The notes under the pieces are model-generated. The model did not search any database and had not been told where the DNA came from. It was given only the letters and a program-made list of their open reading frames with translations. A program made the translations under genes and the position numbers. Positions 4,630 through 36,379 of a stretch of 49,458 nt of DNA are shown piece after piece. Numbering within the stretch: the first letter of the stretch is position 1; each line of letters opens with the position of its first letter. This DNA is from a virus (Duplodnaviria; Caudoviricetes), in the IMG/VR virus record IMGVR_UViG_3300020045_001121, positions 1-49,458 of that record, one strand, 5' to 3'.

Positions 4630-4890
4630 ATGCTTGACTCATTCGGACAAATTGGTGATTCCCCTGAATTTTCAGCCCGTAACTTATTCGCCATAACTCC
4701 TGGCGCGTCTGATTTAGATCGAGTTACAAAAGCGGTTTACATCGGTACTGGTGGCAATATCGAATTGCAAGCTATTGGAGATACCGCATCAGTGATTATG
4801 AAAGTATCTGACGGCCAGATTATCCCTGTGCGTGCGCGCAAGGTAATCGCAACTGGTACGACTGCAACAGGCATCGTGGGTATGGCATGA
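4630..4890 (+). CDS. Head spike base protein (RcGTA Rcc01079-like)
   Basis: FAITP...DL...TKAVYIGTGGNI...G.IIPVRA.KV.ATGTTATGIVG resembles the family as recalled. Confidence 0.7.
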   Translation: MLDSFGQIGDSPEFSARNLFAITPGASDLDRVTKAVYIGTGGNIELQAIGDTASVIMKVSDGQIIPVRARKVIATGTTATGIVGMA

Positions 4891-6020
4891 TTGGTCTAGG
4901 GCTTGGCATTACGCAACTTTCGTGCCGTGGATTTACAGCCGCTCAAAGGGTTGTAAACGACGCCCTGCGCGTCTTCCGCACCTTCGGTTCCGACTCCCAT
5001 ATCTGGCTACCCGGCGTAGGCCAAGTAAACGGCCTGACAGCAGGCAACTGGATAGATTCAGCGGGCACAGTTCCTGCTGTTATTGATAATCCAGTTGGCA
5101 AAGTTACAGACAGTTTAGGTGGCATCCACGCCACTCAGAGCACGACTGGGAGCAAGCCGATATTGCGAAGGGGGATTTTGAATATACTGCTACAAAGCGC
5201 CACTCCAGCACTACAGTCTGTCACGCTTACAGCGGCACCTTACACGCTAGCAATGTACGGCACTGGCTCAGTGGTAGTGGCTGGCGGGTATGTTGGAACA
5301 CTTAACGGGACTGGTGCAAGTAATCTTGTTGTGCTTAACTTCACGTCACTTGCATTGATCACATCATTCACGCCAGTAGGGTCTGTTACATCGTTTGGAC
5401 TTTTCGCCGGAACCCTCACAGCCCAACAAATCCAAGCAGCCGGTGGAATTCCCATCACCACCACAGCACCAGCAAGCTCATCGCAAGGGCTAAGTTACTG
5501 GCAATTCGACGGTAATGATTCGCTGGCTTTGAGTGGGCCGGTGTTTCAGATGGCGGATGATCATTGTGTTATAGCAGCGGCGAGTGTCGGGGCTGCTGCT
5601 GGCATGAATAATAACGTCATTATTTGCCCATCTGGCGACTCGGTCGTAGCTTCAGTAAAGCGACTCGGTCAAATATCGTATGATGCTGTTGCTGGGTTAA
5701 TATCAGCATCATGGTTCGACGGGGTAAACTACGATAACCTTGTGTATAGCTACCCAAGAGACACCAAGTTCATTGCCACCGCTCGCAAGACGGGGTCGAC
5801 ATTAGAACTCTGGGTTAACGGGGTCTTTAGAGCCACAAAGCAAGCAACGGCCTCCTTTACGGCAAACACCGGGTCGATAGGTGCCTACCCAACTAGCTTA
5901 GCACTTGGTAATTTCACTGGCGCAATTTATTACGCAAATGCAGTGAAGGCCACAGTCTCTGATGTGGATCGCGTAATTGGCGAGAAATACGCAGCCCTAG
6001 CAGCCGGAGTAACACTATGA
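4887..6020 (+). CDS. Head fibre/spike with LamG/concanavalin-like domain
   Basis: N-terminal MIGLGLGI, HATQST...KP, WQFDGNDSL, LWVNG; coupled to the spike-base gene. Confidence 0.6.
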   Translation: MIGLGLGITQLSCRGFTAAQRVVNDALRVFRTFGSDSHIWLPGVGQVNGLTAGNWIDSAGTVPAVIDNPVGKVTDSLGGIHATQSTTGSKPILRRGILNILLQSATPALQSVTLTAAPYTLAMYGTGSVVVAGGYVGTLNGTGASNLVVLNFTSLALITSFTPVGSVTSFGLFAGTLTAQQIQAAGGIPITTTAPASSSQGLSYWQFDGNDSLALSGPVFQMADDHCVIAAASVGAAAGMNNNVIICPSGDSVVASVKRLGQISYDAVAGLISASWFDGVNYDNLVYSYPRDTKFIATARKTGSTLELWVNGVFRATKQATASFTANTGSIGAYPTSLALGNFTGAIYYANAVKATVSDVDRVIGEKYAALAAGVTL

Positions 6021-14139: not shown

Positions 14140-14469
14140 TTACGGGATTTGCTTGCCAATTTCAGCTGCAGCACGGACTATTGCGCGGCGAGTTGACGCG
14201 TACGGATTAACCCAATAGTCTTCGTCAGAATCTTCTGCAATATTCTTACTGCTTGCGCTTATGCAGCAACTTGCGCCGGTGAAGTTTCTAATATCGATAC
14301 GCAACTTCACAACCAGACGAAGCGCATCTCCATCGTCTTCAAGTGGGTTCCAGTTACTTCTTGGATTTGGCGAAAGCAACTGCAATCCAGATTCTCCAGC
14401 GAATTCTATATCGCTATATTTGTACTCTACAGCCTTAGCCGCCAACTCAAGTAATTCACGATCATTCAT
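14140..14469 (-). CDS. Hypothetical phage protein, paralog of 30511..30846
   Basis: DRELLELAAKA...WNPL.DDGDALRL.VKL...ASTRRAIV.AAAEIGKQ. Confidence 0.75.
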   Translation of the reverse strand: MNDRELLELAAKAVEYKYSDIEFAGESGLQLLSPNPRSNWNPLEDDGDALRLVVKLRIDIRNFTGASCCISASSKNIAEDSDEDYWVNPYASTRRAIVRAAAEIGKQIP

Positions 14470-14557
14470 TTTGTAACCTATTTTGTTGTTGATTGAGCAA
14501 TCAGTGTAGCACAGCAAAACAAGACAATCACAATCTTTTTTCAACTATTTTCACATT

Positions 14558-19704: not shown

Positions 19705-20135
19705 TTATCGCTGAAATCCCACTGTTAGCAGATACGACTGATCAACTGGTTGACGTTGTTTTAAGTGATAACCCGTACACATTGCGCATTCTTTGGAATG
19801 AGAAGTACGGTTATTTTTCATTGTCAATTTACGCTCGGGATGGCGCTGTCATTCTTGAGAATATCAAGATGGTGAAAAACTACCCGCTAATTGGCCGGTT
19901 TAAAAATACGCTTCTGCCAATTGGTGATTTGTATTTCATTGACAACAAAAACAAACACTCACGCGCACTTTACGAATCAGTCGGAACGGGTGATTATTCA
20001 CTTGTTTATTATGTGCCTGATGCTGTTGTGTCTGAGGTGGTGGTTATCACGCCAGTAGAGGCTTTTAGCGGGTCGATCTGGGACAGTGGCCTGTCTGTAT
20101 GGGATAGCGGTTCGTCTGCGTGGGATGGTGCCTAA
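19701..20135 (+). CDS. Baseplate protein with C-terminal WD-x-G repeats
   Basis: EIPL....Q...V.L....Y.L...WN; tail IWDSGLSVWDSGSSAWDG. Confidence 0.7.
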   Translation: MIIAEIPLLADTTDQLVDVVLSDNPYTLRILWNEKYGYFSLSIYARDGAVILENIKMVKNYPLIGRFKNTLLPIGDLYFIDNKNKHSRALYESVGTGDYSLVYYVPDAVVSEVVVITPVEAFSGSIWDSGLSVWDSGSSAWDGA

Positions 20136-21058
20136 TGGCTTTATTTGACCGTGTAGCCTCGCTGATTGTTGGAAAGCCTGACGGTAAAGCCGTCGAGATT
20201 CGTGATCTACGGTTTTCATTCGCCATTGAGAAGGGTTCGATTGACACTCCAAATTCGTGTACTTGTCGAATCTACAATTTAAACAAAGACTCACGCGCTT
20301 TAGTCGAGACCGTCAACAACATTCTGATTTTGAAGGCGGGTTACAAACGCGACGTTGGCGAGATAACCATTTTCACCGGTACGGTTACTCGGGCTTTAAC
20401 TCGCATTGAAGGCGCTGATTCTGTCACCGAGTTGGAAATGTCAGACGGTGGTGCAGAATACAAAGACACAAAAACATCATTCAGCTTCGCGCCCGGCGTA
20501 TCGGCTCAGCAGGTTTTAAGCAACATTGCAGCCACGTTTAAGCTGCCTATACGGCCATTGCCAAGCGAGATAGCCACCAAGACATATCCAGATGGTTTCG
20601 CATTCATTGGCCGCTCACGCGAAGCGATGAAAAAGGCTTGTGATTTTCTAGGGCTTGAGTGGTCAATCCAGAATCGAGAGTTGCAAATGCTGAAACAAGG
20701 TAAAGCCGTTGATATGCAAGCCTTTGTTCTATCACCTGATACCGGGTTGATTGAGTCGCCAGAATCAGAGCATAAGATTTACTCTGAAAAGACAGCCGCT
20801 AAAAAAGGATTCACCGAAAAGCAAAAGGGCGTGCGCATGACCTATGGCGAAACCGAAGGCGGTAAGAACGAAAAGAAACTAGAGGTCCAAGGCTACCGCG
20901 TGAAAAGCCTTTTACAGCCAGCATTGCAGCCTGGTGGATATGTGCGATTGGATACCCGAGGGATTGATAAAGAGTACTTTAGAGTCGAAAACATCAACCA
21001 CGTCGGTGATTCTCACGGCGCTGACTGGTTTTCGCAGTTGGTTTTGCGGTATGTGTAA
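20135..21058 (+). CDS. Baseplate hub protein
   Basis: LR..F.I.K......N....IYNL, L.AGY, WSIQN..LQ, LSPDTGLI.SP, SLLQP.LQPG, H.GD.HG..W. Confidence 0.85.
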   Translation: MALFDRVASLIVGKPDGKAVEIRDLRFSFAIEKGSIDTPNSCTCRIYNLNKDSRALVETVNNILILKAGYKRDVGEITIFTGTVTRALTRIEGADSVTELEMSDGGAEYKDTKTSFSFAPGVSAQQVLSNIAATFKLPIRPLPSEIATKTYPDGFAFIGRSREAMKKACDFLGLEWSIQNRELQMLKQGKAVDMQAFVLSPDTGLIESPESEHKIYSEKTAAKKGFTEKQKGVRMTYGETEGGKNEKKLEVQGYRVKSLLQPALQPGGYVRLDTRGIDKEYFRVENINHVGDSHGADWFSQLVLRYV

Positions 21059-21103: not shown

Positions 21104-22004
21104 AGCTTATCTAGAATAAGCTGGTTAGGGTGGGGTGGCCGGTACTGATTTCCGGCATGGCTTCTTTCTGTTGCCAAAGACAACATGGTCTTACCTGACT
21201 AGCGCATCAGCCTGCGCATTCACCCCGTAAATTTTGATGGTGCAAGTGGGCTTCATACACTTGACGCTTTTATCTAGTTCACCATCAATCATGAACCCTG
21301 ACTTTACCCATACCGATTGCTAACTATGGCAAGGCTCATGATTGATAGCCGCATGGATTCCACATGCGCCCACTTCGTTTTAAGTCTTCGTGTCCGACTT
21401 TGATGGTTGCCGATTACGCCGTTAAGCGTTCTTGCGTCCGTTTGTTTACCCGTGTACTTTGGCAAACGTGCACTATCTATACCAAACCATCAAGTAAGCG
21501 GGCTGGGCTTGATTCCAGCTTCGCGGCGCGGGCACTATGTCCCGCGTTTACCCTTGGCTGGCCGGCTTACAACGTCCGGTGCCTGCGATAGCGCTCTTGC
21601 TGCGCTGCGTGTCCATCCACGCCGCCGCTTACTTGATAGTCCACGTCTTTCCGTGGGGTCACATAAATCTGAATCCTACTGAAAGTGAATTTATGAAGCA
21701 CTCACCAGCGTTTAACCGTCGCTGGCTTAACCGCCTTTCGGCTACGTTCCGCTATAACGGATATGGTTGATGGTGGAGGGACTCGAACCCTCTCGCGCTT
21801 CTGTGCCTCCAGGACTGCATAACGCTGCCATTCACCATCAAGTAAGCACAGGACGCAGCACGCTGGATTTAGACACCTTCGTACTCGGCACCAGCACAGT
21901 CAGAAATCACTCTGAACTTGTCTATTCCACCTGCTTGATAAATACAGGATCGTAGAGGTACGCTATCGCTGGCCTATGCTTACTTGATGACACTATTTCT
22001 AGTG
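21104..22004 (-). ncRNA. Array of structured, partly tRNA-like RNA domains
   Basis: Closing helices at 21132/21226, 21234/21288, 21284/21346, 21400/21493, 21489/21637, 21767/21841 and 21836/21989; G-U pairs favour the - strand; no credible ORF. Confidence 0.75.
21764..21840 (-). ncRNA. 77-nt tRNA-like RNA with CCA end, no assignable anticodon
   Basis: UGAUGGUG/CACCAUCA acceptor, GAGGG-UUCGAGU-CCCUC T arm, A-CCA 3' end. Confidence 0.7.
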
Positions 22005-22014
22005 CTTGGACTGA

Positions 22015-22044
22015 AGTTTAACGCCATTTCACTCAAAAATTCAA
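22015..22044 (-). promoter_or_regulatory. Putative promoter for the RNA array
   Basis: - strand TTGAAT-18 nt-TAAACT just upstream of the first hairpin. Confidence 0.5.
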
Positions 22045-22081: not shown

Positions 22082-22738
22082 ATGGCAGAAAATAACGACT
22101 TTATCAGCGCATTAAAAAGCATGGTAGACGGTCGCCTGCATGAAATCAATACAAGCCTGCCTGGTGTTATCACTGGTTACGCCAATGGCCGCGCTAGTGT
22201 TCAACCTACGCCTAAACGGCGCTTTGTTGATGGCGACGTTTTGACGTTCCCAATTCTGCAAAACGTGCGGGTTTGCTGGCCTAGCTTTAGTGGCGGGTCG
22301 GCGGGTGTCAAGGGGCCAATTAAAGCCGGTGATAAGTGCCTGCTAGTGTTCGCTCAGCAAGCTGTAGATGGCACGGATGATGCTCGCCGTTTTGATATTT
22401 CTGACTCTTATTGCATCCCTTGTGATCTCGGTAGTGCTGGCGCTGGTGATAGTGGCAATAACGACGCTATGACAGTGTTTTACGGGGCTGCATCAATGAG
22501 GCTTACCGCTGGCGGTGCTTTGGTCATTACAGCGCCTGGAGGGGTCGCTATTGAGGCTCCAAGCGTATCAAATAGCGGGTCACTTTCAAACGCTGGTGCC
22601 GTATCTATGGACTCAACCTTGATTGCGTCAGGTCAGGCCACTTTCACCACTGGCGCAAACATTGGCGGGATTGAATTCTCAGATCACGTCCACAGTGGCG
22701 TATCTACTGGGTTATCAAATACAGGGACTCCAGTTTGA
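22082..22738 (+). CDS. Baseplate central spike (Gp138/GpV-like)
   Basis: TSLPG.I, P...GD.CLL.FA, R.FD.SD, C-terminal H.HSGV metal-binding tip. Confidence 0.88.
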   Translation: MAENNDFISALKSMVDGRLHEINTSLPGVITGYANGRASVQPTPKRRFVDGDVLTFPILQNVRVCWPSFSGGSAGVKGPIKAGDKCLLVFAQQAVDGTDDARRFDISDSYCIPCDLGSAGAGDSGNNDAMTVFYGAASMRLTAGGALVITAPGGVAIEAPSVSNSGSLSNAGAVSMDSTLIASGQATFTTGANIGGIEFSDHVHSGVSTGLSNTGTPV

Positions 22739-23203: not shown

Positions 23204-25006
23204 ATGGCACAACTACCTTTAGATCAAGCTATAAAAAGACTTCAAACAAATGACGAACGGCTTGAAAAGTTTGCCAATGGTGGAGTTGGTGAAAGTTACA
23301 CGTCATCCGCTGGCGCAGTTGTTCCGTCTATTCAAAAATTCTTAGCAACAAAAAACACAGAGATTAATGTCGGAGCTGAAAGCGCTTTGGCTGGAGCTGT
23401 AGCTGCAATGGAAGCCGCTGAATTAAGTGCGACTGATGCCGCTGATTCTGCCGCGTCTTTGATTGGCTCTGGTACTGCTGCATTGATTGGTACGGTGCCA
23501 GCCGGTAATTTGACGGCGGTTAATGTTCAGGGTGCGTTAGACGAACTTGATTACGAAAAAGTTTCTATTAATCAATTGGCTTCCACAGATGGCGCATCAC
23601 TGATTGGCTACATTACTGATGGCGTTGGCGCTGTTGATACTACGGTGCATGGAAGGCTACGTGAGATAGATTACATAGTAGATGGGTTGGATTCTTTCAA
23701 ATACTTGGAAAGCACGTTAAACGGAGTGTCATCATTCCTCGAAAACGAAATCAGCGACTACCGTGGCGACAACTTGCCTACCTATCTACGTCGAGTTGTT
23801 GAGTATCGTCGCTTGGTTGGAAGCACAGAAATATATGAGGCAGTCGCTGAGAAGTCTATCAACACGACAGCAGTTGCATATTGTTTGCGCTACTACGCAA
23901 CCATTTCGAAAAACTACCCGACACAAGCTGGTCAAACCAGACACCACATTGCCGTATTGGCAGATGCGCTGGTAGCACTACAGCACAAAGACGCGCGCAA
24001 AGCCAGATTTGGCGGAATTGCACTCGCCCCCAAGGATGGATCAGCAAGTGCTTTTGGGTCGGCTTACGCTGGACTTGGTTTGCTTGCAGCATACCGAGTC
24101 ACAAATAACCCAGCGTATCTTCAGGCATGCCGAAATATCGCAACTTTTCTATCCGTACTCAACAGCCCTAACGCCAAATACACTGCGATATACGGTGTAG
24201 CACCCATCCCTGCTGTAGCACAGAATGCTACGTGGAATGGGTTCTGTGATCAGATCAGTGCATCTGACACGATCACGACAACGCACACTACATGGAACCT
24301 TGTCGGATGTATGTTCCTGAAAGAACTCTACGAAGAGACGGGCACTACGGCTTATCAAACGCTTTACGTTGCGGTGCGCGACTGGGGCGCAACCGGCCTG
24401 ACGAGTTTCTATGACTTTCACGCTGTCTACCATGCTGGGGCATTGCCTGCGCATGTGAGCAACAATTGGTTCGCCGCTGGCATCACAAAGCAAGACGGTG
24501 CATGGCATCGGCGCGGCGAAGATGTACTGTCGGGCGGGCTGGCCGTCAACACCATCGGTAGTGATCAAATGGAGTACGCCATTGAGGCGCTCTATGCCAC
24601 GGGCTACACATTGGCGACGATAAAAACCGCCTACGACACGATCCAGTCGTGGCCGAATGCAGACGGTGGTGCTTTTGGCGCAGCCTATGACGGGCGCATC
24701 TGCTGGCCCGGTTATTTCCGCATCAACGCGCCTGTTTATGGCGGCGAGTCAAAAGCGTATGGCAGCCACTACGACACCCAGGGCATCGGTCCATTGCTTA
24801 AATTCAAGCATGATCAGTATCCATCGCACTATGCGGTATCTGAGCCCAAAGCGTTGCTTGCACCGACTATTGGTACGCTGGTAGATAAGGACTTCGCCAC
24901 GATCTGGAGCGCCGATTATTCAGGTGTTTTTGAATATACGACAGTCGGAACAGGAACTGTAAAAGGCGTAATTGCCATTGGACTCATGGAGGCATTAAAT
25001 GCGTAG
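23204..25006 (+). CDS. Tailspike-like protein with a putative alpha-helical toroid enzymatic domain
   Basis: N-terminal virion-anchor motifs (NVQGALDEL, GASLIGY...GAV..TV...LRE); C-terminal repeats LL.AY.VT....YL and L.ELYE.TG...Y. Confidence 0.6.
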   Translation: MAQLPLDQAIKRLQTNDERLEKFANGGVGESYTSSAGAVVPSIQKFLATKNTEINVGAESALAGAVAAMEAAELSATDAADSAASLIGSGTAALIGTVPAGNLTAVNVQGALDELDYEKVSINQLASTDGASLIGYITDGVGAVDTTVHGRLREIDYIVDGLDSFKYLESTLNGVSSFLENEISDYRGDNLPTYLRRVVEYRRLVGSTEIYEAVAEKSINTTAVAYCLRYYATISKNYPTQAGQTRHHIAVLADALVALQHKDARKARFGGIALAPKDGSASAFGSAYAGLGLLAAYRVTNNPAYLQACRNIATFLSVLNSPNAKYTAIYGVAPIPAVAQNATWNGFCDQISASDTITTTHTTWNLVGCMFLKELYEETGTTAYQTLYVAVRDWGATGLTSFYDFHAVYHAGALPAHVSNNWFAAGITKQDGAWHRRGEDVLSGGLAVNTIGSDQMEYAIEALYATGYTLATIKTAYDTIQSWPNADGGAFGAAYDGRICWPGYFRINAPVYGGESKAYGSHYDTQGIGPLLKFKHDQYPSHYAVSEPKALLAPTIGTLVDKDFATIWSADYSGVFEYTTVGTGTVKGVIAIGLMEALNA

Positions 25007-25928
25007 TATTTACAAAAACATTGCTCACAATCCCCGCTTTCAGCTTTGGCCTTTTGGCTCAAGTGGGATTGTGGCGACAGGCCCAACTGCTGCTCGTTGG
25101 AAGCTAGAGCTAACAAACGCTAATGATGTGGTCGCAGTATCAAAAGGCACCAATGCCAGCACGACAAAATACGATAAGTGGATGCGCAGCGAAGCCAATA
25201 TGACAATCGCGGTCACAGGGCTGGATGCGGCAAGCACACTGCGCATCCGTCAATTCCAAGAGTGGGCAGAGGATTTCGGACAGAATTGCGTTGTCATGAC
25301 GGTGATTGCGTCAGGGCCAGCAGGGTCTAGTTTTTATTTCGGCATTGGCGATAACTACGATACGCTCACCACACTCGGAAATGATGCAGGTGGGGACCCT
25401 ATCATGGTAGCAAAGACATCTACTTTTGCTTTTGATGATCCCGTGTATGAATACATGCGCGTAACTCCTTTTGAGTCGCCTTCTGCTGTTGGTACTTATC
25501 GATTGCACTATGTAAACGCTGAGGTCATGGCAAATCCAAATGAGCGCAGCGAGTTCGAGCTTCGCCCAGAATGGGAAGAGTGGGACATCATTAAACGCTA
25601 CATTACACCCATTAAAACTGGGATGTTTGCCACTGGGGCTGGGGTGACGGGTATTCGTATACCAGTAGTAGCACCACCCGGCGGCTGGAGAATTGCGCCA
25701 TCCATTGCACCTGGCGGGAGGGCAACGTCAGTAAAAATCAATTTGAATAGTGGTGGCACTGAGATTACAAACAACGCTCCCGTATTTACTTTGGCTACAA
25801 CACCACCCCCAAATGTGCACGGATGTGTGATTTTATTCACCGGGTTTACTACCACGGCGGCGGCAAGCCAGTACGTCATTGGTGACAACCCTGACCCTAT
25901 CTTTTACCTAAACGCTGACTATTTCTAA
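24999..25928 (+). CDS. Hypothetical structural/receptor-binding protein
   Basis: 309-aa beta-rich ORF with GGAGG RBS, ending L.ADY. Confidence 0.6.
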   Translation: MRSIYKNIAHNPRFQLWPFGSSGIVATGPTAARWKLELTNANDVVAVSKGTNASTTKYDKWMRSEANMTIAVTGLDAASTLRIRQFQEWAEDFGQNCVVMTVIASGPAGSSFYFGIGDNYDTLTTLGNDAGGDPIMVAKTSTFAFDDPVYEYMRVTPFESPSAVGTYRLHYVNAEVMANPNERSEFELRPEWEEWDIIKRYITPIKTGMFATGAGVTGIRIPVVAPPGGWRIAPSIAPGGRATSVKINLNSGGTEITNNAPVFTLATTPPPNVHGCVILFTGFTTTAAASQYVIGDNPDPIFYLNADYF

Positions 25929-30510: not shown

Positions 30511-30846
30511 TTATGGCATTTGCTTGCCGATTTCGGCGGCTGCACATACGATGGCACGTCTTGTGGAAGCTAATGGATTTCCATGATGAAAATCGCAAGA
30601 CTCAGATATTTTTGCTTCATCGTCTACAAGCACAGAATAATCTCCTTGCATAATATTTAACTTCAACTTCACCGACAACCGCAGCGCATCACCATCGTCT
30701 TTTAGTGGATTCCACTTTCCACCATCAAACGGAAGTTGCAGCCCTCCGCTAAAGTATTCGATAACTTCACCGTCATCAGTTCGTTGATACTCAATATTTG
30801 CAGCCTTCGCCGCCAGTTCAAGCAATTCTCGATCAGTCATCATCAT
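30511..30846 (-). CDS. Hypothetical phage protein, paralog of 14140..14469
   Basis: Shared motifs DRELLELAAKA, WNPL.DDGDALRL, ASTRRAIV.AAAEIGKQ. Confidence 0.75.
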   Translation of the reverse strand: MMMTDRELLELAAKAANIEYQRTDDGEVIEYFSGGLQLPFDGGKWNPLKDDGDALRLSVKLKLNIMQGDYSVLVDDEAKISESCDFHHGNPLASTRRAIVCAAAEIGKQMP

Positions 30847-31145
30847 TCCTTCACAAAACAACCATTAGGCATCAAAGTGCCTTTACGGTCTTTGATCTCT
30901 TGGTAAGCTGAATCCAAGCAAGAAACCAAATCTAGATTCTCCTTTTCAGCAACGATAATCAGCGTCACCAATACGTCACCAAAGCCATCAATAACGCCTT
31001 CACGGTCTCCTTTGATAAGTGCGTCTGCCAGTTCACCAAGCTCTGAAACTGTCTTCAAAAGCTGGGTTTGGCTTGTGGCGTTTGGGATAATCTTACGAGC
31101 CTTGGCCCATTCGATTACTTGTGTTTCTAGTGTTTCAAATTTCAT
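30843..31145 (-). CDS. MazG-like NTP pyrophosphohydrolase
   Basis: WA..R.I, Q.LK..SE.GELADA, D..GD.LVTLI, CL..AY.EIKDRKG. Confidence 0.88.
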   Translation of the reverse strand: MKFETLETQVIEWAKARKIIPNATSQTQLLKTVSELGELADALIKGDREGVIDGFGDVLVTLIIVAEKENLDLVSCLDSAYQEIKDRKGTLMPNGCFVKE

Positions 31146-34363: not shown

Positions 34364-35955
34364 TCTGTTTTACTCCAAACTCTATCAATCACGTTAAAAA
34401 ATTTACCGTTCTTTTTGTGGCTTATCATGCTTGGTGGTTGTCCAATGGTTAAGCAAATTGCACAATGATCTAGATCATCGCTTAATGTAACGTCAGCTCT
34501 TTTTGCTATGTCTGCAACTGTCTGACGGGCCTTTATTCCTGCGTAATTGGTGTGGTTGACTGCATGATATTCAACAATCGCAGGGTTTGACAGTCCACCA
34601 TAGTAGCGCACTTGGAGCATGTCTAGGCCACTGGTTCGGCTTGTGTGCTTTTTCCACGCCCAGCTTGTCACCTGCATTTCGGTTGGTTCGATGCCCATGA
34701 TGTCCTCTCCGCGCAGGTAAACCTCTTTTGGCTTTTCATCTGGTGGTGGGAACTGGTGGCCACACGCGTCGCATTGTCTGACGCTTGCGTGGCATAGCTC
34801 GTCACATTGTGGACATGTCTTTGTTGGTGCTATTCCTGAGCCTTTACCGCCGCGCTTTGGTGGTGTTATCTGAGTGATTGGGCCGTGGGTGGCTACGTTT
34901 CCTGCGAAGTCTAGGACCATGCAATCTGTTTTTCCTGGTGCAATGCGTAAGCCCCTCCCGCTCATCTGGTAGAAAAGTGCAGCAGAAAGTGTGGGTCGCA
35001 GCATAACAATGCAGTCAATATTTGGCGCATCAAAACCAGTAGTCAAAATCCCCATGTTGGTGACTGCCTGAATTTTCCCGGCTTTGAAGTCTTTCAGGAT
35101 GCTGTCACGTTCCGCGTTTGGTGTGTTGCCAGTCACTGATTCAGCGCTTATGCCATGTTCTCGCAGCATATCGCGCACGTCTTCGCTGTGCTGTACCCCG
35201 GCACAAAATACAATCCAGCTTTTGCGATCTTTGGCGCGTTCTATCGTCTCTAAAACAGCCTTGACGTTGTTGTCGCTGGTATTCATGGCGACCTCTAGCG
35301 ACCGTCCTATAAACTCACCTCCTGACTTTTTAACTCCATCGGTTGATAGCGTCATTGATGTGTGCTTGCTTCGCAATGGTGCAAGGTAGCCACTCTCGAT
35401 AAGCTCCAAAATTGAAACGGGTTCAATCAAGTCTGAGAAAATAACCTCGTCGCCTTCATGGATCATCCCGTGACCTAATCGGTACGGGCTTGCCGTCAAG
35501 CCAATGACCCGCATATCTGGGTTAATCTCTAACAGGTCAGCGATTAAACGGCGATAGGTGCCGTTTTCTGTTGGACTGATTGAATGGCATTCATCCACGA
35601 TTAGCAAGTCGATATGGCCTATTTGCTTGCCTCTTTTGGCTACGCTTTGCACTCCTGCAAAAACAATCGGCTCTGTAAGGCAATACCGTTTAAGGCTTGC
35701 AGAATAAATACCCATTGGCGCATTAGGCCAGTGCTGGCGCATTTTTTCTGCGTTCTGCGCGATAAGCTCCTTTGAGTGCGTCAACATCAAAACCCGCGTT
35801 CCGGGCCATGATTGGATAGCATCCTTAACCAGTGCGGCGATGATGTGGCTTTTTCCTGCGCCAGTTGGTAGGACTAAGCAAGGGTTCCCAGTGTTACCAG
35901 CTGAAAACCACTCGTAGAGCATGTCGATGCTCCGTTGCTGATATTCACGCAACAT
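34360..35955 (-). CDS. SF2 DExH helicase with zinc finger (RadD/YejH-like)
   Basis: LREYQ, PTGAGKS, DECH, TASP, LTTGFDAP, QMSGRGLR, CPQC...C..CGH. Confidence 0.92.
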   Translation of the reverse strand: MLREYQQRSIDMLYEWFSAGNTGNPCLVLPTGAGKSHIIAALVKDAIQSWPGTRVLMLTHSKELIAQNAEKMRQHWPNAPMGIYSASLKRYCLTEPIVFAGVQSVAKRGKQIGHIDLLIVDECHSISPTENGTYRRLIADLLEINPDMRVIGLTASPYRLGHGMIHEGDEVIFSDLIEPVSILELIESGYLAPLRSKHTSMTLSTDGVKKSGGEFIGRSLEVAMNTSDNNVKAVLETIERAKDRKSWIVFCAGVQHSEDVRDMLREHGISAESVTGNTPNAERDSILKDFKAGKIQAVTNMGILTTGFDAPNIDCIVMLRPTLSAALFYQMSGRGLRIAPGKTDCMVLDFAGNVATHGPITQITPPKRGGKGSGIAPTKTCPQCDELCHASVRQCDACGHQFPPPDEKPKEVYLRGEDIMGIEPTEMQVTSWAWKKHTSRTSGLDMLQVRYYGGLSNPAIVEYHAVNHTNYAGIKARQTVADIAKRADVTLSDDLDHCAICLTIGQPPSMISHKKNGKFFNVIDRVWSKTE

Positions 35956-36379
35956 CTAAATTCTCACTTTTTAATTGTTCATAAATCAAATTCAATAACA
36001 TTGGCTGAAGTTTTTCCATAATATTCATTGAAATTAAAAAAACATCGCCATCACTTAGCTTTACTTTTTTCACTATTTCAGATTTCCAAAATGGAGATTT
36101 CTCAGTTACTGAAGAAACCTTTTTGTTAGTTTCATGTTCATCAAGCATAATTTTTGCCTTAGACCTAGCATGATCTAGGGTCATTTTTTCATTTGATCTT
36201 ATTGCAGTCCTAACTGATTTTTTATCAATTCTGCATTGAAAAATAAAAGATACCTTACCTTTTTTTATTTTTCTAATTCCAAAGCCATTTACAAGCGAAT
36301 CCCATATAAACAATTGTGACTCGTTATCACTGTTTTGAAATTCGTCTAAAACTTCTTGAGTTATTAGAACTTTTCCCAT
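35945..36379 (-). CDS. Stand-alone integrase arm-type DNA-binding domain protein
   Basis: IWDS...GFGIR....G..SFIFQ.R.......I.....MTL..AR.KA; no catalytic domain; AT-rich. Confidence 0.6.
   Translation of the reverse strand: MGKVLITQEVLDEFQNSDNESQLFIWDSLVNGFGIRKIKKGKVSFIFQCRIDKKSVRTAIRSNEKMTLDHARSKAKIMLDEHETNKKVSSVTEKSPFWKSEIVKKVKLSDGDVFLISMNIMEKLQPMLLNLIYEQLKSENLDVA

Follow-up and report, generated by a model that had tools for sequence, protein, structure and literature searches.

The window, by which we mean the whole stretch of DNA analyzed (49,458 bases), is a virus record with direct terminal repeats. On the plus strand we found myovirus-type genes (terminase, portal, capsid, sheath, and baseplate); on the minus strand, a PHROGs search placed genes for helicases, thymidylate synthase, a Sak4-like annealing protein, and a Cas4/RecE-like exonuclease. 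The array described here fills a 1-kb noncoding gap between the baseplate hub gene and a PF18352 gene (22082-22738), which, judging from its position, is probably a baseplate spike. The features of the locus are as follows.

22082..22738, plus strand: probable baseplate spike, flanking gene (Pfam PF18352, E 6e-17)
22015..22044, minus strand: likely sigma70-type promoter (-35 TTGAAT at 22044-22039, 18-nt spacer, -10 TAAACT at 22020-22015, a TAnnnT hexamer)
21991..22004, minus strand: hairpin H1 of unit 1, GAAA loop, predicted to stack on the stem's outer arm
21835..21990, minus strand: Y domain of unit 1, with a long closing stem; predicted RNase III cuts at 21983/21982 and 21841/21840
21764..21840, minus strand: X1, tRNA-like, 77 nt; stem UGAUGGUG/CACCAUCA, T arm GAGGG-UUCGAGU-CCCUC, encoded ACCA
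21657..21763, minus strand: linker module with several hairpins, partly common to L001
21641..21656, minus strand: hairpin H2 of unit 2, GGAAAGAC type, GAAAGA loop, common before such units in other phages
21486..21640, minus strand: Y domain of unit 2, a tRNA-like frame; predicted cuts at 21632/21631 and 21493/21492, giving 139 nt
21400..21492, minus strand: X2, multibranch, with UGAUGGUU/AACCAUCA as its closing pair; 5 Y families occur ahead of it
21350..21399, minus strand: linker with a pseudoknot-like element (AAGUC...GACUU-AAAA) and hairpin H3 (21368-21350, loop UGGAAUC)
21281..21349, minus strand: Y domain of unit 3, a long hairpin; predicted cuts at 21341/21340 and 21288/21287, giving 53 nt
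21234..21287, minus strand: X3, by its fold a minimal acceptor-plus-T-arm RNA of 53 nt, also in L004
21130..21228, minus strand: terminal tRNA-like K module (our label), with a GGGGUG/CACCCC stem, a variable middle, and an ACC(A/C) end
20120..21058, plus strand: baseplate hub, flanking gene (phrog_196, E 6.5e-70)

A TAnnnT hexamer stands directly before the array in 15/15 arrays. A promoter scanner made no call at 22044-22015 because the elements match the consensus at 8 of 12 positions. Judged from these elements, transcription probably starts near 22008. At the other end, the stretch 3' of K (21125-21058, minus strand) is further structured and is common to L004 and L005; other relatives have a tRNA-Met there. 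No terminator was called in this stretch. Four plus-strand ORFs of 62 to 91 aa overlie the array and match no Pfam family, and we rejected protein coding of the array on these grounds.

Other features of the window were noted in passing. A tRNA-Lys called by ARAGORN at 34617-34707 (plus strand) is antisense within a helicase ORF, has no Rfam support, and is probably false. The phrog_5086 family occurs twice on the minus strand (14143-14544 and 30514-30861), the first copy lying in a minus-strand insertion among the virion genes. Long plus-strand ORFs in the virion block (4887-6020, 23204-25006, and 24999-25928, of 377, 600, and 309 aa) matched no PHROG or Pfam family. A 144-aa minus-strand ORF (35948-36379) gave a weak Arm-DNA-bind_3 match (E 5e-5, below the cutoff), and a catalytic integrase domain was not found in it.

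The first-pass annotation had described a grammar repeated three times, with a hairpin, AUCAA opening a domain Y, a central UUGAU, and a domain X closed by a constant sequence. We found all three units on the minus strand, at 22004-21764, 21656-21400, and 21368-21234. The full pattern occurred only in the array within the window and in 0/1,000 dinucleotide shuffles of the window, and we therefore rejected a chance origin. We numbered each unit from the G of the central GAUGG as +1 (21839, 21491, and 21286 in units 1 to 3). In the same order, AUCAA starts at 21988, 21637, and 21346, the central UUGAUGGU is at 21841, 21493, and 21288, and ACCAUCAA, at the end of X, is at 21774, 21407, and 21241. 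Extra AUCAA copies at 21939 and 21513 are internal to Y domains and do not mark junctions. The array exceeds the three units, as it includes the likely promoter, the linker modules, and a fourth tRNA-like module (21228-21130).

The modules differ in structure. The predicted product Y1 (21982-21841) is 142 nt long; an unrelated phage (L039) carries a near-identical Y1, and related cargo in L007 occupies an X slot. X1 has a canonical T arm and lacks a standard anticodon arm. The Y2 frame has a D-like arm, GCGU-GGAUGGAC-ACGC, a variable middle, and a T-like arm, GCUGG-AAUCAAGC-CCAGC, and its predicted cuts would leave a 7-bp acceptor and a 2-nt overhang. In the K module the D-like and T-like loops are complementary (CUGA/UCAG), and this pair becomes GUGA/UCAC in 3/15 K modules (L004, L017, and L028).

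We also recorded where some of these elements occur elsewhere. The linker at 21763-21657 (minus strand) is not closed by a standard junction. The pseudoknot-like element and T-like hairpin of 21399-21350 recur in L001, L005 to L008, and L028, and the pseudoknot-like element, with its stem changed, precedes a K module in Pseudomonas phage YA3 (L141). K has short matches in many isolated phages, lying between Q and a holin gene in CUS-3 and YA3. K modules are present in many X slots as well and, in a single case (L108), in a Y slot.

By their predicted folds, X1, X3, Y2, and K have an acceptor-like stem and a T-like arm, and ACCA is encoded only after X1. Rfam on the whole window gave nothing at an E of ≤1 and none at threshold; on the gap it gave only subthreshold tRNA and mascRNA matches. 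Against the Rfam tRNA model (RF00005), X1 scored 22.1 bits, below the gathering score of 29, with G21839 aligned as +1, and ARAGORN called no tRNA in the array. We accordingly rejected canonical tRNAs, with a cloverleaf and an anticodon arm at gathering score, as the class. We also rejected allo-tRNAs of the 8/4 or 9/3 type, since the X1 T stem has 5 bp rather than 4 or 3, and YrlA Y RNAs, since no Ro60/TROVE gene and no Rfam match were found. Some cargo elsewhere does pass the tRNA gathering score (X of L001 and L005, and Y of L047 and L069). Among 20 related loci, tRNA alone reached a gathering score; 20 other loci gave weak anti-hemB, isrK, tRNA-Sec, and SorX matches below gathering. The subthreshold isrK and anti-hemB matches lie just downstream of X modules (L085 721-809, minus strand; L046, L074, L087, and L099).

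The central UUGAU had been proposed to be shared, so that neighboring domains compete for 5 to 6 bp. The competition was borne out, but the strand was not: the neighbors compete for UGAUGG(U), about 7 nt from -1 to +6, rather than for UUGAU, because the upstream arm, (R)CYAUCA, pairs on into GGU. The general form of a unit is hairpin-(R)CYAUCA-N, then Y, then N'-UGAUGG, then X, then CCAUCA. We examined 25 distinct units in a downstream-anchored set, in which downstream +1 to +7 is fixed by the search pattern and the Y register was set by the inner stem only. This set was prepared from 70 loci, minus 16 without a parsed K opening, 1 that was too short, and 2 duplicates, with 28/51 kept at a score of ≥9.5 (chance rate, 31/350). 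We found that -2, the first U of UUGAU, covaries with the upstream arm only. It pairs upstream in 24/25 units (4 Watson-Crick types) and downstream in 9/25, and -1 pairs upstream in 23/25 and downstream in 19/25. Upstream pairing of +1 to +6 is present in 22 to 25 of the 25 units and that of +7 in 5/25. In an upstream-anchored set, -2 pairs upstream in 16/16 distinct units, and X closes at ≥6.5 of 7 in 13/16.

In Iodobacter phage phiPLPE, Xanthomonas phage FoX2, L210, and L255, the three copies of the strand have changed in concert. The core is UGUUGG in phiPLPE and UGGAUU in FoX2, with both partners changed. Taken together with the pairing data, these changes indicate that the shared strand runs from -1 to +6, that its boundary lies between -2 and -1, and that pairing rather than the word is kept. 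A hairpin stands 0 to 1 nt before the upstream arm (CYAUC) in 22/28 homologous units versus 182/840 random segments. The third base after CCAUC is C in 46/65 tails, the commonest tail being AACC (13/65), and the X tail bases are thus consistent with CCA-type ends without proving them. Units are chained in two ways, either with a short duplication, ATCAA-CT-ATCAA (L003, L010, and L017), or with a single ATCAA serving both as the end of X and as the start of the following Y (arrays of L002, L007, L012, L013, and L015).

To compare related phages, we searched with the spike protein and obtained 37 loci, of which 14 were used as arrays. Nine have an empty slot of 3 to 42 nt, L018 has other sequence, and the remaining loci lack the hub or are distant. 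The 14 relatives carry an array in the same slot, and the hubs of 8 are 94 to 97% identical to the window hub. The 15 arrays contain 31 Y-X units and 62 modules in 38 families. As a slot table of these arrays makes clear, the same junctions enclose differing combinations of cargo. The Y3 family precedes 7 different X families, and X2 follows 5 Y families. The suggestion that cargo is swapped like cassettes was supported. Most of the close relatives are contigs from metagenomes whose ids have a single prefix, and assembly chimeras could underlie some of the mosaics. In 5/16 loci scanned, the array ends with true tRNA-Met genes.

Pattern scans extended the grammar to unrelated phages and prophages. 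We found it in unrelated viral contigs, in phiPLPE and FoX2, and in 8/10 named genomes, including those of Achromobacter, Acidovorax, Polynucleobacter, Parapusillimonas, and Xenophilus. The whole array was found in 0 records of isolated phages at 80% cover, and a junction pattern scan of genome_contigs gave no match. Phages commonly carry the D-type tRNA-like frame seen in Y2 (at least 120 loci, L142 to L261; about 250 estimated). These frames mostly stand alone, have unrelated middles, and belong to no Rfam family.

The first-pass annotation had offered, as one of two readings, a DNA recombination scaffold with TTGAT/ATCAA inverted ends. TTGAT and TCAA resemble cleavage words of IS200/IS605 elements, and a shufflon-, integron-, or IS200/IS605-like system, in which a recombinase or HUH transposase reads TTGAT/ATCAA, would have this likeness on its side, together with the alternating inverted sites, the mosaic cargo, the ATCAA-CT-ATCAA duplications, and the below-cutoff Arm-DNA-bind_3 match at 35948-36379. 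However, BLAST between arrays gave 319 same-strand matches versus 2 opposite-strand matches, both of the latter being self-complements of stems. Cargo is therefore exchanged and not inverted in the 15 arrays, and we rejected a shufflon or invertible cassettes on this ground. The core is not fixed (GAU, GUU, GAA, or GAG) while its pairing is kept, the flanking arms are not conserved, and the G.U pairs fit a minus-strand RNA. Finally, no recombinase or transposase family was found among the 56 ORFs scanned against PHROGs and the 49 scanned against Pfam. We regard a site-specific DNA system as largely refuted and exceedingly improbable. Ordinary recombination by the phage's own annealing protein at the 13- to 40-nt shared junctions would be the simpler reading.

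The other reading was that the junction is a processing signal or folding switch that orders release of the RNAs. We took pair rules for RNase III from the available parts of PMC1540722 and PMC6212723 (in vivo E. coli matrix, Table S4) and scored 116 units in 40 arm clusters with the in vivo matrix in 13 registers on the RNA strand. The matrix is that of E. coli, and the phage's host may differ. The register had been picked out by eye in the pair profile before matrix scoring. We found that a cut between -2 and -1 (U^UGAUGG, with the partner cut after AUCANN) was the best of the 13 registers in 27/40 clusters. With the variable inner stem alone, it was best in 20/40, and 0/2,000 permutations reached the inner score. 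Mean scores are modest, at about 3 bits, and 13/40 clusters prefer another register. In the window, units 1 and 2 agree with this register, and unit 3 prefers register -2 (5.2 versus 3.8).

The stems also follow the other RNase III rules in part. Regarding the helix of about 11 bp, -2 to -10 are paired in 28 to 40 of the 40 clusters, the units having been selected on pairing there, and -11 to -13 in 26 to 30. The proximal box shows G-C at -7 (29/40), A-U or U-A at -6 (28/40), and A-U at -5 (20/40). Distal-box pairs, by the rule U-A and then U.G, are less uniform (-13 U-A, 17/40; -12 U.G, 13/40, or C-G, 14/40) and are absent from window units 1 and 2. By the rules, a duplex of about 22 bp spans both catalytic sites; the outer arm here has 6 to 7 bp, and a hairpin abuts it in 22/28 units, so that a double cut would depend on the predicted hairpin stack. 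These sequence rules support a likeness between the array and the stems at which RNase III processes polycistronic phage RNAs.

In a second, independent set, for which the D-like arm was the anchor (120 loci, less 18 in which no T arm or acceptor was parsed, 1 short locus, and duplicates), the same register was best in 12/20 extended stems and in 8/16 when the UGAUGG core was left out. Downstream closure is present in 8/20 extended frames versus 7/78 other D-type frames (P = 0.002). A-U or U-A at -6 is no commoner in extended (10/20) than in stand-alone (44/78) D-type frames. A T-like hairpin occurs in 30/85 distinct Y domains; in 20/30, its end lies 9 nt ahead of -1, so that the predicted cut would leave a 7-bp acceptor and 2 nt.

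Most D-type frames (78/98) lack the extended stem, and RNase P alone could therefore give the same 5' end for a tRNA-like Y. This bears on tRNA punctuation without RNase III, in which RNase P cuts U^GAUGG once X closes, or in a permuted hairpin-arm structure, RNase Z or exonucleases make the 3' ends, and the long Y stems only stabilize the products. U at -1, G at +1, and A at 73 are usual RNase P features and would fit this alternative. The Rfam alignment also puts +1 of X1 at G21839, the third tail base after CCAUC is mostly C, and the stand-alone D-type frames have 7-bp acceptors. Judging from the available parts of PMC4201824, on YrlA in Mycobacterium smegmatis, RNase P can cut such a closed acceptor. 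Nevertheless, punctuation by RNase P alone does not account for the RNase III-type pairs in the inner stems, which vary in sequence, for Y1 and Y3, which have no tRNA shape, or for the folding predictions, in which upstream pairing dominates in the precursor. We had first considered a boundary at U^GAUGG and rejected it, as -1 is common to both arms and the RNase III register fits better. We consider this alternative unlikely as a full account. RNase P may act as a second step, trimming U-1 after an RNase III cut.

In the predicted fold of the precursor, the central strand pairs upstream at -1 to +3 in each of the window's three units. For units 2 and 3, the predicted upstream pairing reaches +6 and is favored by 5 to 8 kcal/mol; in unit 1, the conformers differ by <1 kcal/mol. 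Each X folded alone after the predicted cut closes an 8-bp stem on itself, and X bound to the upstream fragment gains 0 to 3 kcal/mol at standard state, which cellular dilution should outweigh. Upstream pairing in the precursor and self-closure of X afterward would thus imply an order in which the cut comes first and X then refolds. The reading as a processing signal or folding switch is therefore the one that stood, supported by the RNase III register and by models of the fold in which upstream pairing precedes closure of X. With 20 shuffles per strand, the folding z-score came to -5.2 for either strand and does not tell them apart.

If upstream pairing forms first and is favored, the shared strand could also be a folding chaperone only, the upstream arm holding the 5' strand of X in an array that stays one long uncut RNA. 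The whole-array z-score of about -5 fits this, and sRNA-17 of E. coli, discussed below, appears untrimmed in what is available of PMC7719688. A chaperone accounts poorly for the register-specific RNase III signature, the exact 7-plus-2 spacing, the free shuffling of modules, and the mature-type tRNA genes in the same arrays. We think it very unlikely that this is all the strand does.

We consider it probable that the locus is a cassette array in which a shared-strand switch, RNase III cutting, and annealing-mediated exchange act together. The array is likely transcribed as one precursor of swappable structured-RNA cassettes. In many phages the junction has pairing partners on either side, and exchange of cargo takes place at the junctions without inversion. 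Y would close during transcription, and the upstream hairpin would stack on the 6- to 7-bp outer arm. RNase III would then make a staggered double cut, at N^UGAUGG and after AUCANN. Y is predicted to leave with a 2-nt 3' overhang and, when it is tRNA-like, a 7-bp acceptor stem. X, its 5' U freed, is predicted to displace the short upstream fragment and close its 8-bp stem, behind which ACC(A) often stands. Final processing of the ends may fall to RNase P, exonucleases, and the CCA enzyme. The constant junctions would also offer short stretches of homology to the annealing (Sak4-like) and exonuclease proteins that the phage encodes, and we propose that any cargo recombined there in the right register would as a result be released correctly.

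What the RNAs do is a more tentative matter. Our best guess, held with limited confidence, is that they act as anti-defense decoys, the products titrating tRNA-cutting or RNA-binding defense proteins. Counterdefense seems to fit best because the locus turns over among near-identical phages and encodes tRNA mimics and some true tRNAs and because the array lies on the strand of the DNA metabolism genes, behind a host-type promoter. C4/CI-type phage RNAs are regulators of host or phage genes, and the frames might instead carry, in stable form, antisense or protein-binding inserts that control such genes. Constant frames with hypervariable middles would suit carriers, and so would the 48 host transcripts altered by deletion of sRNA-17 (PMC7719688, available parts). 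The inserts are predicted to be largely paired, however, and no Rfam C4 match was found; we think this function somewhat doubtful. Consistently with a decoy role, phage tRNAs have been reported to offset tRNA-cutting defenses (PMC11555353 and PMC10264068, in the parts available).

The broadest form of the proposal is speculative, and we do not expect all of it to hold: proteobacterial phages would share plug-and-play RNA cassettes, with the junction as both crossover point and RNase III-gated switch and the arrays as libraries of anti-defense decoys, tRNA mimics among them. If so, the arrays would be an RNA counterpart of anti-defense gene hot spots, and many phages would make structured RNAs of dozens of families not yet catalogued, using a junction that is shared and recombinable. 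The job of phage tRNA-like RNAs would become testable cassette by cassette. Cut predictions are given at base level, and the layout is present in isolated phages and named prophage hosts. It would also be a compact natural design for making several structured RNAs with protected ends from one transcript.

Searches of the literature and Rfam gave no description of this layout; subscription papers lay mostly outside them, and the 10,006 supplement candidates of PMC10690425 may include single modules. The available parts of PMC10690425 and PMC13397905 describe phage RNA candidates, among which we did not find the layout. We concluded that the parts are known and that the shared-strand junction with its large pool of swappable cargo is undescribed in the literature searched.

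The phage T4 tRNA cluster encodes tRNAs and the tRNA-like stable RNAs called species 1 and species 2, which host RNases, RNase III among them, bring to maturity. It resembles the array, at the level of description, as a phage transcript with tRNAs and tRNA-like RNAs. The T4 cluster is fixed, whereas in the array one standard junction recurs and the cargo belongs to dozens of families that can replace one another.

sRNA-17 of E. coli K1 RS218 (PMC7719688) is K-like as read from its primers, which contain the 5' part of the K frame. It is prophage encoded, was detected by Northern blotting, and was mapped at 193 nt with its leader and terminator attached, a mapping that does not show tRNA-like trimming. 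In Table S2 of that paper, the RACE primers and the Northern probe point to the strand opposite the labeled sRNA-17, which is the K strand; by our analysis, their direction implies that the K strand is the RNA, which is indirect evidence that K-type RNAs are expressed. sRNA-17 is solitary and has a terminator, in contrast to the arrayed K, and the available parts of the paper describe no tRNA-like fold, array, or processing.

Irregular tRNA polycistrons and allo-tRNAs (PMC5389517, available parts) are like the array in comprising noncanonical tRNA-like RNAs, some probably outside translation. They keep anticodon arms and are 8/4 or 9/3, whereas the array's modules are 7/5 or 8/5 with variable middles and interlocked stems. 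YrlA Y RNAs, as described in the available parts of PMC4201824, also occur in phages and have a tRNA-like domain, with a T arm followed by an insert-closed acceptor-like stem. Unlike them, the array has a linear tRNA order in X and in the D-type Y frame, with no Ro60/TROVE gene and no Rfam match.

A close mechanistic parallel is with the RNase III stems of E. coli and of T7 R1.1, so far as the available parts of PMC6212723 and PMC1540722 describe them. As in those stems, the array has proximal-box pair preferences, and less uniform distal-box ones, at the right spacing, and a staggered cut, here predicted, would free an enclosed RNA from a polycistronic transcript. Unlike those stems, whose cleavage it shares by prediction, the array encloses noncoding and swappable cargo, and its outer arm is short, is borrowed from the closing stem of the next RNA, and is predicted to be handed back.
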